Source: Acidobacteriota bacterium (GTDB lineage: Bacteria; Acidobacteriota; Thermoanaerobaculia; UBA5066; Gp7-AA6). From it: a stretch of DNA of 64,000 nt. The stretch covers positions 608 to 64,607 of the forward strand of contig JANMBR010000107.1 of NCBI GenBank assembly GCA_031360505.1. The letters run 5' to 3'. A program made the translations under genes and the position numbers. Within the stretch, counting starts at the first letter, position 1. The number at the start of each line of letters is the position of its first letter. Positions 9,172-29,895 of this stretch are shown one piece after another. The notes under the pieces were generated by a model that saw only the letters and a list, made by a program, of their open reading frames with translations, ran no database searches and was not told the DNA's origin.

Positions 9172-9874
9172 CTAACCGCTCTGACCGCGACGGCGCTCCT
9201 GCCGCCCTCCGAAAGGCCCGGAACCCGCCTCGGGCGTCACCCCGCGGAAGGTCATCCGATGCTCGGGGCAAGGTCCGTAGAGCCGCAGCGCTTCCCAGTG
9301 CTCGGGGGTCCCGTAGCCCTTGTGCGACTCGAACCCGTAGACCGGATGGCGCCGTCCGAGCTCTCCGAGCAGCTGATCGCGGTGGACCTTCGCGACGATG
9401 GAACCTGCCGCGATCGACACCGAGAGCGCGTCGCCATGGATGACAGAGAGCTGGGGCACCCGGACCGCGGGAACGCGCACCGCATCCACGAGCAGCACGT
9501 CCGGCATCGGGTCGAGGCAAGAGACCGCCCGGCGCATGGCCTCCAGGCTCGCCCGCAGGATGTTCTCTGCATCGATCTGGCGAGCCTCCACGACGCCGAC
9601 GCCGACCGCCACCGCCCGACGCCGGATTTCACGATCGAGCCGGTCCCGTGAATCGGGATCGACGCGTTTGGAGTCGTCGAGACCGGGAAGCACGCAGCCC
9701 TCGGGAAGGATCACGGCGCCGGCAACGACCGGTCCCGCCAGCGAGCCGCGGCCCGCTTCGTCCACTCCGGCGATGTGCGTGAAGCCCCTCGCGGAGAGCT
9801 CCGACTCGAGGCGCGCCAGCTGGCGCAGACGACCCAGCTCGGCGAACAGGGCGGCGAGCGGGTCGGTCCTCACG
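9172..9874 (-). CDS. rnhB: ribonuclease HII
   Basis: Contains 'IAGVDEAGRGSLAGPVVAGAVIL' and 'DDSKRV' catalytic motifs. Start placed at an in-frame GTG (9872-9874) so the gene does not enter the repeat element; the ORF track extends it to 9936. Confidence 0.85.
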
Positions 9875-9883
9875 GAGCGGCGA

Positions 9884-10015
9884 CTAGTGTTCTGTAACCG
9901 AAGTATCGATCGCGCCAACCAGCTTCTCACGAGCACCGTGGCTCTCGCTCTTCGAGCCTTGTTGCATCATTCGAGCGGGGAGGTTGGTACCGTGACTCCT
10001 GTGACAGGACACTAG
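9884..10015. mobile_element. MITE-like ~132-bp repeat, copy A. It is CTAG-bounded with imperfect ~18-bp terminal inverted repeats GTGTYCTGTMACCGAAST.
   Basis: About 83% identical to the reverse complement of 29069..29201. Both ends read ctaGTGTTCTGT...ACAGGACACtag. It fills the rplS-rnhB intergenic space, and its right CTAG supplies the rplS TAG stop. Confidence 0.55.
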
Positions 10016-10362
10016 TCGGTCCGCTTCTCGTCGATGCGGGCGGCCTTGCCCTTGCGCTCGCGGAGGTAATAGAGCTTCGCGCGGCGCACGGCGCCCCGCC
10101 GCTCGACTTCGATGCGCTCGATGATCGGCGAGTGGAGCGGGAACACGCGCTCGACACCGACGCCGCCCGAGATCTTCCGCACCGTGAACGTCTCGCGGGA
10201 GCCGCCGCCCCGGCGCGAGATCACGACGCCGGCGAAGAGCTGGATGCGCTCTTTCTCGCCTTCGCGGACCTTCACGTGCACCTTGATCGAGTCTCCCGGC
10301 GCAAACGCCGGCAAGCCGCTCTTGAGCGACAGTTTTTCCACGTCGAGAAGGACATCACTCAT
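10012..10362 (-). CDS. rplS: 50S ribosomal protein L19
   Basis: '[11 protein letters not shown]...[24 protein letters not shown]...' matches L19. Start set at the ATG for MSDV; the ORF track shows a 5' extension to 10458. Confidence 0.9.
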
Positions 10363-10400: not shown

Positions 10401-10514
10401 AGCCTCGCCAGGGAACGGTGGATCCTACACGAAGGCAGGGCCCGGTTTCAAGCTTCAAGTTTCAGGTTTCAGGGCACTTACTCGACCCATCTCCCGAGCC
10501 TGCGACTCCCGTTC

Positions 10515-23359: not shown

Positions 23360-23653
23360 CTAATACATCTCCACCTTCGGGATCATCAACGCCCGCACCG
23401 CACAGTTTCCGTTGATTCGCGCCTGGCACCCGAGCCGCCGGCCCTCGCCCATGTCGTAGGCCAGCTCCTGCGGATTGACCGGAGAGAGACTCTCGCTCCC
23501 CACGACGACCTCCACGCGGCAGGTCGAGCAAGTGCCATTGCCGCCGCACACGTGGCTGATCCTGACGCCCAGATCGAGTGCAGCCTGGAGCACCGTGGTG
23601 CCGTCCGCGACCACGCCGGCTTTCCCCTCGTTGACGAAAACGATCGTGGGCAT
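23360..23653 (-). CDS. 2Fe-2S ferredoxin
   Basis: 97 aa with 'CGGNGTCSTCRVEV...C' plant/adrenodoxin-type Cys spacing. Confidence 0.8.
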   Translation of the reverse strand: MPTIVFVNEGKAGVVADGTTVLQAALDLGVRISHVCGGNGTCSTCRVEVVVGSESLSPVNPQELAYDMGEGRRLGCQARINGNCAVRALMIPKVEMY

Positions 23654-24293
23654 GACAATCGCGACCTTGCAGAATCAGGGTAGCACAGCGAATTCGCCAG
23701 GCCGCTTTCCGGCTCGGCCCGACGAGGAGTTCTGGATTGGACGCCCGTTCGACGCCCGCGCGCGCTTCGGCCGCGTTGCCCCGCTCGAGGTCGAGATCGG
23801 CAGCGGTAAGGCCCGATTCCTCGTCGCCTCGGCGCTCGAGCATCCGGCCCACAACTTTCTTGGGCTGGAGCGGTCGCTCTCCTACTACCGCCTCTGCCGC
23901 GAGCGCGTCACGCGCGCCGGGCTCGCCAACGCGGCCATGGTGCGCGCCGACGGGCGCCTGTTCGTCGAGACCGCTCTGGCCGAGGGCTCCGTGCGCGCCT
24001 TCCATGTGTACTTCCCCGACCCGTGGCCGAAGAAGAAGCAGAAGAAGCGCCGCCTGCTCGACGGCGTCTTCCTCGAGACGGCCGCCGGACGGCTCGAGCC
24101 GGGCGGAATCCTCCGCATTGCCACCGACCACCCGGACTACGGCGCGCACCTCGAGACCGTCGTCGAAACCGTGCCTCCACTCGAGCGGCTGGCCTGGGAC
24201 GCCTTCCCGCTGCCCCCGCCGACGAACTACGAGATCAAGTACGAGCGGGAGGGCCGGCCGATCTGGAGGTTCCTGCTCCGCAGGAGATCCTAG
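23652..24293 (+). CDS. trmB: tRNA (guanine46-N7)-methyltransferase TrmB (start uncertain)
   Basis: 'LEVEIGSGKARFLV', 'AFHVYFPDPWPKKKQKKRR' and 'ILRIATDHPDY' are diagnostic TrmB motifs. Confidence 0.75.
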   Translation: MTIATLQNQGSTANSPGRFPARPDEEFWIGRPFDARARFGRVAPLEVEIGSGKARFLVASALEHPAHNFLGLERSLSYYRLCRERVTRAGLANAAMVRADGRLFVETALAEGSVRAFHVYFPDPWPKKKQKKRRLLDGVFLETAAGRLEPGGILRIATDHPDYGAHLETVVETVPPLERLAWDAFPLPPPTNYEIKYEREGRPIWRFLLRRRS

Positions 24294-24844
24294 GGCTTCT
24301 CGGGCCCGGCCAGGACGATCCGCCGCAAGAATCGCACGAAGTACTCGGTCCCCGAACCCAACGCGACGGCGACGACGAGCCAGAGCGCGACCAGGCCCGG
24401 CCCGGCGAACATCTTGTGCCGCAGCGCCAGGATCAACAGCGAGACTGCGGCAACCTGGGTGAGCATCTTTGCCTTGCCCCAGCCCGACGCCGCGATGATG
24501 ATGCCGCGCCCCGACGCGATCGAGCGCAGGCCCGACACGGCAAACTCGCGGCCAATCACCACGACGACCATCCAGGCCGGCGCCAGGCCGAGCTCCACGA
24601 GCGAGATGAACGCCGCCGAAATGAGCAGCTTGTCCGCGATCGGATCGAGCAAGGTCCCCAGGGTCGTGATCTCGCCGCGGCGGCGCGCGAGCCACCCATC
24701 GAGAAAGTCGGTCGTCACGGCCGTGAGAAAAATCAGCAGCCCCACCGTCTCCCGGCCGTCGAACTTCGTCAGCAGGACGACGACGAGGAACGGGACGAGG
24801 AAGATGCGCAGCAGCGTCAGCGCGTTGGGAAGATTGATCTTCAA
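24290..24844 (-). CDS. pgsA: CDP-diacylglycerol--glycerol-3-phosphate 3-phosphatidyltransferase
   Basis: 'NALTLLRIFLVP...DFLDGWLARRRG...TLGTLLDPIADK' is the CDP-alcohol phosphatidyltransferase motif. Confidence 0.85.
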   Translation of the reverse strand: MKINLPNALTLLRIFLVPFLVVVLLTKFDGRETVGLLIFLTAVTTDFLDGWLARRRGEITTLGTLLDPIADKLLISAAFISLVELGLAPAWMVVVVIGREFAVSGLRSIASGRGIIIAASGWGKAKMLTQVAAVSLLILALRHKMFAGPGLVALWLVVAVALGSGTEYFVRFLRRIVLAGPEKP

Positions 24845-24912
24845 GGTCGTGGCCTCGAACTATAACGTCTTCGCGAGCGCCTCCGGTTTCGGGCCTCGCG
24901 CATAATAGACGG

Positions 24913-27791: not shown

Positions 27792-29123
27792 CTAGTTTCT
27801 CCGCTGATCCACCGGCCGATCCTGGTCCGATGCGCGGCGCCTCGGGCGTGGCGGCTCGGTCAGGACCACGCCCTCGCCTTCGAAGCGGATCTTCGGCGGA
27901 CTGGCGATGTCCGGCTGCATGACCTCCTCGAGGAACTGGTCGTCGAGAACCGACGCGACGAGATCGCCGCTCCAGGCCACGAGATCGCGCGAGGAGATGG
28001 AAAGCGGATACTGCGCCGACACCTCGTGCGCGAGCACCGGGCCGCCGACCGAAAAGACCACGCTGCCCTTGCCCTGCACTTTCAGGATGTCGATGCGGCG
28101 GCTGCGCCGAAAGTCGTGGATCGCGTCGAGCCGGAACGTGAGGCCGTGGTCGAGCGCCAGCAGCCGGCTGCCCTCGACGTGCAGCGTCTGCCCTGTCAGG
28201 TCGCGCCTGTAGGCGCGCCGGCCGGAGTCGTTGACGAGCAGCGTCCCGAGGCCCGTCGCCCGCAGGATCCGCTCGAGCGAAGTGCCCGCGAAGGCGGTCT
28301 CCGGCGTGAATCGGAACTTGCCGCTGTACCAGGCCACGCAACCCTTGCGCACGAAGACCGTGCCCCGGGAGGCCACTTCGAGCCCGCCCTCGGGCCGGAT
28401 CTTGAAGAGGGGGCGCGTCTCGGGAGTGGCGACCGCGATCGAGGCCGAACCCTCCGGGACTTCCGGAAACGCCGGGGCAAATCCGGGCTTCTCGACCCCG
28501 GCCGCATCGCTCACCGCCGCCTTCAGCGTCGGCGCCGCGTCCGAGAGCGATCCGCTTCGGGGCGCGCCGTCGCGGCCCGGCCGGCGCAGCGCCTCCTCGA
28601 TCTCCGTGACCCTTCGCCGCGCGCCCGCCACGCGCAGATGCTCGAGCGCGAGCCCGAGCTTGCCGCGCATCTGGTAGAGCAGTCCGAGGTACAGGTGGCT
28701 GCGCAGGTGGCCCGGCGCCAGCTCGATCGCCGACCGGAGCTCCTTTTCGGCCTCGGCGAGCCGGCCGGACTTGAAGAGGATGAGGCCGAGGTTCGACCGC
28801 AGGACTTCCGACGCCGGGTTCTCGGCGACCAGCGTGCGCGCCGCGTTGGCCGCCTCATCGTACCGGCCGCGCTTGAATTCAAGGATCGAAACCAGGTTGA
28901 GGACATCCTCGTCGTGCGGCCGGAGGGTCCGGGCCTGCTCGAGCTCCGTCCAGGCTTCCTCGAAGTGCGCCTCCCGCACCTCGCGCCGCGCGCGATTCAG
29001 GTGCAGGAGGAACAGTCCCTGATCCACGGGGGAAGGATCTCCGGCGGCCGGCACGTGCGCTGCCCGGACTAGTGTCCTGTAACCGAAGTCACGATACCCA
29101 CCCTCTTCGCTCGAAGGATGCAA
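27792..29123 (-). CDS. TPR-repeat / AIM24 (DUF124) domain protein. The true start lies downstream of the repeat element, at <29069.
   Basis: N-terminal TPR repeats ('AEKELRSAIELAPGHLRSHLYLGLLYQMRG'). The C-terminal ~230 aa resemble AIM24/DUF124. Confidence 0.65.
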   Translation of the reverse strand: MHPSSEEGGYRDFGYRTLVRAAHVPAAGDPSPVDQGLFLLHLNRARREVREAHFEEAWTELEQARTLRPHDEDVLNLVSILEFKRGRYDEAANAARTLVAENPASEVLRSNLGLILFKSGRLAEAEKELRSAIELAPGHLRSHLYLGLLYQMRGKLGLALEHLRVAGARRRVTEIEEALRRPGRDGAPRSGSLSDAAPTLKAAVSDAAGVEKPGFAPAFPEVPEGSASIAVATPETRPLFKIRPEGGLEVASRGTVFVRKGCVAWYSGKFRFTPETAFAGTSLERILRATGLGTLLVNDSGRRAYRRDLTGQTLHVEGSRLLALDHGLTFRLDAIHDFRRSRRIDILKVQGKGSVVFSVGGPVLAHEVSAQYPLSISSRDLVAWSGDLVASVLDDQFLEEVMQPDIASPPKIRFEGEGVVLTEPPRPRRRASDQDRPVDQRRN

Positions 29124-29201
29124 GAAGGCCCAAGAGCGAGAGACACGGTGGTCGTCAGAAGCTGCATGGCGCTATGGAGAGTTCGGTGACAGAACACTAG
29201 C
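29069..29201. mobile_element. MITE-like ~133-bp repeat, copy B (inverted relative to copy A)
   Basis: The reverse complement aligns along its whole length with 9884..10015, core '...AGCGCCA..CAGCTTCT.ACGA.CACCGTG.CTCTCGCTCTT...GCCTT.TTGCATC.TTCGAGCG...'. CTAG termini; the right CTAG supplies the TAG stop of the SLT gene. Confidence 0.55.
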
Positions 29202-29895
29202 CGAGGCGGCGCGGCACGGGCCGGCCCTTGGTCGTCAGCGTGACGCGATTGGTGCGCGCGTCGCGGACCCACTGCACCGAGCGGCCCTGCGACGCGGCGA
29301 TGCCCCGGTACGTCTCGGCGGCCGGCTTGCCGAATCCTCCACCCAGCGTGGACTTGCCGTAGTAGGCCGCCAGAGCCTTGCGGACGTAGAGCTGCGTTTC
29401 TGCATACGGGGGCACACCGTTGTACCTGTCGACCGCCCCTTCGCCCGCGTTGTATGCGGCGAGGGCCTTCACCAGGTCGCCGTCGTAGTAGGACATCAGG
29501 TGCGAGAGCTGGCGCGTTCCGGCGGCGATGTTCTGCTTCGGGTCGTGGACGTCGCTCACGCCATGTTCGGCGGCAACCGCGGGCATGAGCTGCATGAGGC
29601 CGCGGGCCCCCTTGCGCGAGATCGCGGCCGGATTGAAGCCCGACTCGATGAGCATGACCGACTTGACGAGCTTCGGGTCCACGGCGTTGTCGCGCGCCGC
29701 CACGTCGATCAAATCGTCGTACGCGGACGCACGGCCGACGCGGGCGGCCAACCAGCCTTCGCTGGCGGCGATATTGGCGGGGCCGTCGTTGTAGATCACG
29801 CGCCGCCCGTCCTTCACGGCCACGCGCACCTGCGCCGAAGCCGCCGCGGCCATGGCGACAAAAATCCCCACGGAGAGAAGGAGCCGAAGCTTCAT
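29197..29895 (-). CDS. lytic transglycosylase (SLT domain), secreted
   Basis: Signal peptide, 'LVKSVMLIESGFNPAAIS', 'GLMQLMP' and 'AYNAGEGAV' SLT family-1 motifs. Confidence 0.8.
   Translation of the reverse strand: MKLRLLLSVGIFVAMAAAASAQVRVAVKDGRRVIYNDGPANIAASEGWLAARVGRASAYDDLIDVAARDNAVDPKLVKSVMLIESGFNPAAISRKGARGLMQLMPAVAAEHGVSDVHDPKQNIAAGTRQLSHLMSYYDGDLVKALAAYNAGEGAVDRYNGVPPYAETQLYVRKALAAYYGKSTLGGGFGKPAAETYRGIAASQGRSVQWVRDARTNRVTLTTKGRPVPRRLG

Follow-up and report, generated by a model that had tools for sequence, protein, structure and literature searches.

Two CTAG-flanked 132-nt repeats at gene ends in Thermoanaerobaculia as probable MITE copies of IS630-family origin

The two 132-nt repeats present in the window (the whole 64-kb stretch of DNA that was analysed, with a GC content of 68.3%) are very probably non-autonomous MITE copies that derive from an insertion sequence of the IS630 family and were inserted into CTAG, a behaviour that is ordinary for a transposon. 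The pattern in which both copies coincide with the stop codon of the upstream gene is not due to chance, yet it is not peculiar to stop codons, and the comparisons reported below support the view that it follows from CTAG targeting. This explains a recurrent 132-nt repeat in metagenome-assembled genomes (MAGs) of Thermoanaerobaculia and other Acidobacteriota.

Results

The two elements and the adjacent genes

Copies A and B (Table 1) share the ends CTAGTGTYCTGTNAC...GTNACAGRACACTAG, which belong to 21-nt terminal inverted repeats, and are bordered by CTAG on either side. The end motif CTAGTGTYCTGTNAC/GTNACAGRACACTAG has four matches in the window, with none expected from shuffled sequences. 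The two copies are inverted with respect to each other. By BLAST, the identity of the elements alone is 83.5%, and their alignment has a mean column identity of 86% when the short flanks are counted in. A search with the family profile (nhmmer) detected nothing else of the element in the 64-kb window, be it a copy, a degenerate copy or a fragment.

Table 1. Coordinates of the two elements and of the genes on either side of them
Feature	Coordinates	Strand	Remarks
MITE copy A	9884-10015	.	132 nt including both flanking CTAGs; nhmmer E = 1.5e-37; empty site in L039/L040
Copy A, element proper if TA is duplicated	9887-10012		
Copy A, terminal inverted repeat, left arm	9884-9904		pairs with 9995-10015
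Copy A, terminal inverted repeat, right arm	9995-10015		CTAG 10012-10015 holds the rplS stop codon
MITE copy B	29069-29200	.	132 nt including both flanking CTAGs; empty sites in L044-L047 and L053
Copy B, element proper if TA is duplicated	29072-29197		
rplS, ribosomal protein L19, 116 aa	10012-10362	-	PF01245; stop TAG = complement of 10012-10014 (CTA)
rnhB, RNase HII, 233 aa	9172-9873	-	PF01351; start GTG 9873, 10 nt past the element
SLT-domain lytic transglycosylase, 232 aa	29197-29895	-	PF01464; stop TAG = complement of 29197-29199 (CTA)
TPR-AIM24 protein, 420 aa	27792-29054	-	start GTG 29054, 14 nt past the element

Each copy is held by a pair of minus-strand genes, rplS followed by rnhB in the case of copy A and the SLT gene followed by the TPR-AIM24 gene in the case of copy B. 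The longest open reading frames (ORFs) of both downstream genes enter the element (rnhB from 9936, TPR-AIM24 from 29123), and the GTG starts listed in Table 1 were therefore set by homologues: the RNase HII thus delimited has the length of most of its closest relatives, and close relatives of the TPR-AIM24 protein have 421 aa. As for the next GTG of the TPR-AIM24 gene (29027), L053 alone among the five relatives shares it, the other four having GTA. The public proteins that are 100% identical to the two products comprise 233 aa (rnhB) and 411 aa (TPR-AIM24), which means that the public gene calls stop short of the element.

The first-pass annotation, made from the sequence of the window, had proposed that the right-hand CTAG of each copy provides the TAG stop of the upstream gene, that the element fills the gap to the next gene, and that the 5' extensions of rnhB and TPR-AIM24 into the element are probably artefacts. 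The positions of the rplS and SLT stops agree with the first proposal; as to the second, the downstream starts lie only 10 and 14 nt beyond the element; and the extensions are indeed artefacts, as the homologue-based starts lie past the element. A caution for gene callers follows, namely that ORFs reaching into this element are to be regarded as artefacts.

In the trmD-rplS gap upstream of rplS (approximately 10440-10475), short heptamer-like repeats TTTCAAG/TTTCAGG are found (ggtttcaagcttcaagtttcaggtttcagg), for which there is no Rfam match.

Empty sites in relatives

Relatives that have the same gene order and lack the element provide empty sites for both copies. In L039/L040, whose rnhB is 90% identical to that of the window, the rplS-rnhB junction reads ...ACCGAC TAG AATTTCTCC GTG AGG, where the window reads ...ACCGAC TAG(TGTCC...ACAC TAG)TCGCCGCTCC GTG AGG, the inserted part being given in parentheses. 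The junction between SLT and TPR-AIM24 without the element reads ...CTCGGC TAG CCCGGGGACCGACC GTG in L044-L047 and ...GGC TAG TCCGGGGACCGGCC GTG in L053; these five relatives, whose neighbouring proteins are 89-91% identical, have 13-14 nt between TAG and GTG. At both loci the window shows CTAG, 124 nt and a second CTAG at the place of the one CTAG of the relatives, so that each copy amounts to a 128-nt net insertion with the target duplicated. Since the single CTAG of the relatives already constitutes the stop codon, the stops of rplS and of the SLT gene pre-date the insertions. The element raises the spacer from 9-14 nt to 139-143 nt, and the reason why it fills the gaps is that they were so short before the insertion.

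In more distant relatives, the element is absent and the rplS stop is TGA, or TAG that is not preceded by C (GTAG). The empty SLT-TPR/AIM24 site in L053 lies on the contig of L007, which carries two copies elsewhere, and thus genomes that have the family still leave this site empty. An exact look-up of the SLT protein matched no contig. Another metagenome assembly contains a contig of 1.3 kb (L038; ERZ28573526 scaffold_573561) that is the same as the window over 401 aligned bases (500-900); this stretch spans the rplS-MITE-rnhB junction, and its identity means that the same occupied allele is present in that sample. As it carries the element, L038 is uninformative as an empty site for rplS.

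The comparison of orthologous loci, which had been suggested as a check, thus gave the outcome named beforehand for a neutral insertion, as the close relatives keep both the stop context and the downstream starts without the element. The other half of the neutrality test, which concerns transcription signals, was judged by consensus scans alone. Taken at the level of sequence, the insertions appear to be neutral.

The element family and its IS630-family relatives

When one genome of each species was scanned for a pattern made up of both ends, 12 loci were obtained, most of them in Acidobacteriota MAGs. A scan of metagenomes, for which the flanks were left out of the pattern, yielded 25 loci, of which 15 have CTA...TAG flanks and one more is off by a single base; the other nine, which include at least two longer palindromes of a different kind, have interiors unlike those of the flanked copies. 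Besides the two window copies, 24 more CTAG-flanked copies lie on GC-rich contigs, beside unrelated genes. The copies of the family are 131-132 nt long.

The link to the IS630 family is provided by L023, where a MITE (11-134) adjoins an element of 1161 nt (131-1291) that has the same ends. This longer element contains one ORF of 363 aa, which is an IS630-family transposase (NF033545, 263 bits, cutoff 100) with DDE_3 and HTH (helix-turn-helix) domains. The MITE ends read CTAGTGTCCTGTAACCGAAGT, as compared with CTAGTGTCCTGTCTCTGAAGT at either end of the L023 insertion sequence. The same type of end is found in L048-L050, L054 and L055, the architecture of which is that of L023, with CTAG on both sides and ends beginning with GTG. 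Hundreds of 362-aa relatives of the L023 transposase were found, of which L048-L050 were examined; L054 and L055 come from plasmids of Streptomyces and Janthinobacterium, where the genes are annotated as IS630-family transposases. In the 64-kb window itself, no transposase of this type came to light. Because the full-length elements come from contigs of approximately 51-54% GC and from these Streptomyces and Janthinobacterium plasmids, they are relatives of the true parent of the window copies rather than the parent itself.

Several further features of these elements were observed. The transposase ORF (200-1291 in L023, and likewise in L048, L049, L050, L054 and L055) extends to the very end of the element (...GGACAC) and has no stop codon other than the TAG of the target. 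In L048, another element end (...GGGACACTAG, approximately 2430-2445) adjoins the left end of the insertion sequence. Given that the MITE and the insertion sequence of L023 share a single CTAG and that the elements of L048 are likewise abutted, the regenerated terminal CTAGs have evidently been re-used as targets. The same 15-nt terminal core CTAGTGTYCTGTNAC is combined with unrelated interiors in L004 (1965-2108), L010 (5235-5370, in a Bacteroidetes MAG of 30% GC), L006, L008 and L012; this occurrence of one core with unrelated interiors in other phyla and orders suggests that MITEs may have been born repeatedly and independently from this IS630 subgroup. The two low-GC copies among these are not at stop codons.

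CTAG sites, stop codons and the proposed mechanism

The tetranucleotide CTAG is rare in the window, with 21 occurrences against 187 expected from the base composition, that is, an approximately 9-fold depletion. For nine of the 17 CTAGs that lie outside the elements and are unoccupied, there is a coding-like ORF whose stop codon overlaps the CTAG. One unoccupied CTAG (24290-24293) is the shared stop of two convergent real genes, one on the plus strand for a Methyltransf_4 protein (23460-24293) and one on the minus strand for a CDP-alcohol phosphatidyltransferase (24290-24859); an insertion at this site would keep both stops.

At 68% GC, TGA would be expected to dominate among stop codons. In approximately 210 kb of GC-rich related DNA, for which a crude GC3-based gene map was drawn, the stops comprise 75 TAG, 71 TGA and 16 TAA. 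According to the same crude map, C precedes 38 of the 75 TAG stops, and the 51 unoccupied CTAGs in this DNA are distributed among stop codons (23), intragenic positions (12) and intergenic positions (16). As for the occupied sites, 26 CTAG-flanked copies lie on contigs with a GC content of 58% or more; in 16 of them a coding-like ORF ends on the terminal TAG, and the remaining 10 are not at a stop codon. The proportion of 16 in 26 does not differ significantly from 23 of 51 (Fisher p = 0.23) and, when the intragenic sites are set aside, it is practically that of the unoccupied sites (23 of 39; Fisher p = 1.0). The upstream ORFs are for the most part real genes: nine of ten tested have Pfam domains extending to the C-terminus, their products being MutL, UvrB, S18, RsfS, an EAL-domain protein, PPIase, DAGK, DUF1501 and DUF885. 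The association with stop codons is thus the one to be expected if CTAG is targeted and intragenic insertions are lost. Of the earlier suggestion that insertion is directed to stop-proximal CTAGs, the part that concerns CTAG stands, and the part that concerns stop codons as such does not, the share of copies at stops being matched by both sets of unoccupied sites.

The following mechanism very probably accounts for these observations. A cognate transposase would act in trans and bind the approximately 21-nt terminal inverted repeats. Insertion would occur into the TA of 5'-CTAG-3', the TA would be duplicated and, with an element proper that starts with G and ends with C, a full CTAG would be rebuilt at each junction. 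Where the target CTAG is composed of the last base of a sense codon and a TAG stop, the upstream gene would retain an in-frame TAG with the element in either orientation, the TA being supplied by the target and the G by the element end, and the insertion would for this reason be harmless to that gene. Selection would remove insertions inside genes, and copies would accumulate at gene ends. That about half of the available CTAGs are stops would result from the depletion of CTAG combined with the frequency of TAG stops in this lineage of 68% GC.

The duplicated unit is probably TA rather than CTAG, judging from family membership, as the G...C ends of the element make the two kinds of duplication indistinguishable by sequence. 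IS630-family elements duplicate TA (PMC2170065). According to the accounts of earlier work that these sources give, IS630 favours TA within 5'-CTAG-3' (Tenzen et al. 1990, 1991, as summarised in PMC2170065), and IS870 depends on CTAG for a stop codon of its own (Fournier et al. 1993, as summarised in PMC13630536).

A more far-reaching reading, which we consider unlikely, is that this IS630 subgroup has evolved to use the CTAGs of stop codons as a safe harbour, with TAG rebuilt on both sides and with a hairpin that might keep genes coupled and be recruited for mRNA processing. If this reading were true, the G...C termini would serve to keep stops in either orientation, and convergent genes that share a CTAG would both keep theirs. 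Furthermore, the terminal hairpin might hold the upstream stop near the downstream start across an insert of approximately 130 nt, and operon-internal hairpins could be recruited for the control of mRNA processing.

The hairpin in the transcribed strand

The elements, even if inserted as neutral transposon copies, might now act as hairpins in operon mRNAs, independently of orientation, and affect stability, RNase III processing or translational coupling, in the manner described for Correia and ERIC repeats. The hairpins predicted in the transcribed strand are strong (-52.7 and -48.5 kcal/mol; z = -3.6 and -2.5) and could affect the operon mRNA, the spacer of 9-14 nt that the element lengthens is of a coupling type, and RNase III processing is documented for Correia/NEMIS transcripts (PMC2229807). 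However, an RNAalifold analysis of 14 oriented copies found that the inverted-repeat stem alone is kept, with no compensatory support (covariation term +0.43) outside the transposase-binding repeats, and such conservation of the stem is what transposase-binding ends alone would give. A conserved RNA structure was ruled out on this ground, there being no covariation beyond the inverted repeats. The occupancy of the site by the element is, moreover, polymorphic among close relatives, and the interior sequence bears no sign of selection. An effect of this kind on operon mRNA is accordingly quite improbable.

Tests of built-in function

The first-pass annotation had also raised the possibility that the element is a terminator, promoter or RBS module of the downstream gene and is kept as such. 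The arrangement of the genes could be read in this way, since not only the two window copies but also those in L001, L008, L011, L018, L022 and L031 lie directly upstream of co-directional genes, and the downstream genes are without an obvious Shine-Dalgarno sequence. Against such a cassette, copies A and B are oppositely oriented relative to transcription, and in the whole family the orientation with respect to the upstream gene is random (6 forward, 7 reverse). The relatives have the same genes with gaps of 9-14 nt and no element, the copies in L003 and L027 lie between convergent genes, and the 10 of 26 copies away from stop codons count against this explanation as well. Scans of 9700-10200 and 28900-29400 on both strands found no promoter (-35/-10, sigma-70-type consensus only) and no hairpin followed by a T-run that would indicate a terminator. 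A search of the whole window against Rfam at the gathering score had no match, nor did a search around copy B with a limit of E <= 1. There is therefore no support for a function that the element would bring to the downstream gene, and a functional cassette, or regulatory device, is largely refuted and in our view very unlikely. A 42-aa ORF that runs across both window copies was considered as a gene and rejected, as it is not conserved: most family members have 131 nt, which breaks the frame.

A MITE of the IS5-family type, with duplication of all 4 bp of CTAG as in MITEPsy1 from Pseudomonas syringae, would explain equally well why CTAG flanks the element on either side and stands alone in the empty sites, and MITEPsy1 does duplicate CTAG or YTAA (PMC3189936). 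The termini, however, match IS630-family elements and not IS5-type ends, and the inverted repeat of MITEPsy1 (GGAAGGTCTGAAAAAGCC) is unrelated to that of the window element. An IS5-type origin, rejected on the evidence of inverted repeats and transposase, is most improbable.

Discussion

The value of these observations is mainly practical. The family offers a clean example of how CTAG specificity and genome composition send a transposon to gene ends without selection for function. It could, in addition, be used to trace recent polymorphism of insertions between uncultured strains that are closely related.

Comparison with known systems

Several known repeats resemble the window element in part. 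MITEPsy1 is a 100-nt MITE that likewise inserts at CTAG, which is duplicated (PMC3189936), and it differs in the 4-nt length of the duplication, in the inverted repeats and in its proposed parent ISPsy2, which is unrelated to the IS630-family elements described here. The Correia/NEMIS and ERIC repeats are also TA-flanked MITEs, are often co-transcribed in operons and form long hairpins; promoter, IHF-site and RNase III functions have been documented for them, whereas none is indicated for the window element.

A closer parallel in organisation is RUP of pneumococcus, a short (107 bp) non-coding repeat with terminal inverted repeats that match an IS630-family insertion sequence, which inserts at TA, is scattered over intergenic regions in many copies and is thought to be mobilised by IS630-Spn1 (PMC2229807). 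The sequence of RUP is unrelated, its host is a low-GC Firmicutes species and its target is TA in general; the window element, in contrast, is always CTAG-flanked and is found mostly on stop codons in GC-rich Acidobacteriota.

With respect to the target, the nearest counterparts are IS630 of Shigella sonnei and IS870 of Agrobacterium vitis, which, in the summaries given in PMC2170065 and PMC13630536, insert into the TA of 5'-CTAG-3' with duplication of TA. The transposase ORF of IS870 is described as closed by the target TAG (PMC13630536), and the same is the case in L023, L048-L050, L054 and L055 (...GGACAC|TAG), so that a stop codon generated from the target TAG is common to IS870 and the L023-type elements, which range from metagenomic contigs to plasmids. 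Unlike IS630 and IS870, the window copies have no transposase and measure 132 nt rather than approximately 1.15 kb, and the comparison with these two insertion sequences is one of published target behaviour and not of repeat sequences. Placed among these systems by their sequence, the window elements can be regarded as an IS630-derived MITE in Thermoanaerobaculia, an unnamed addition to an already known type.
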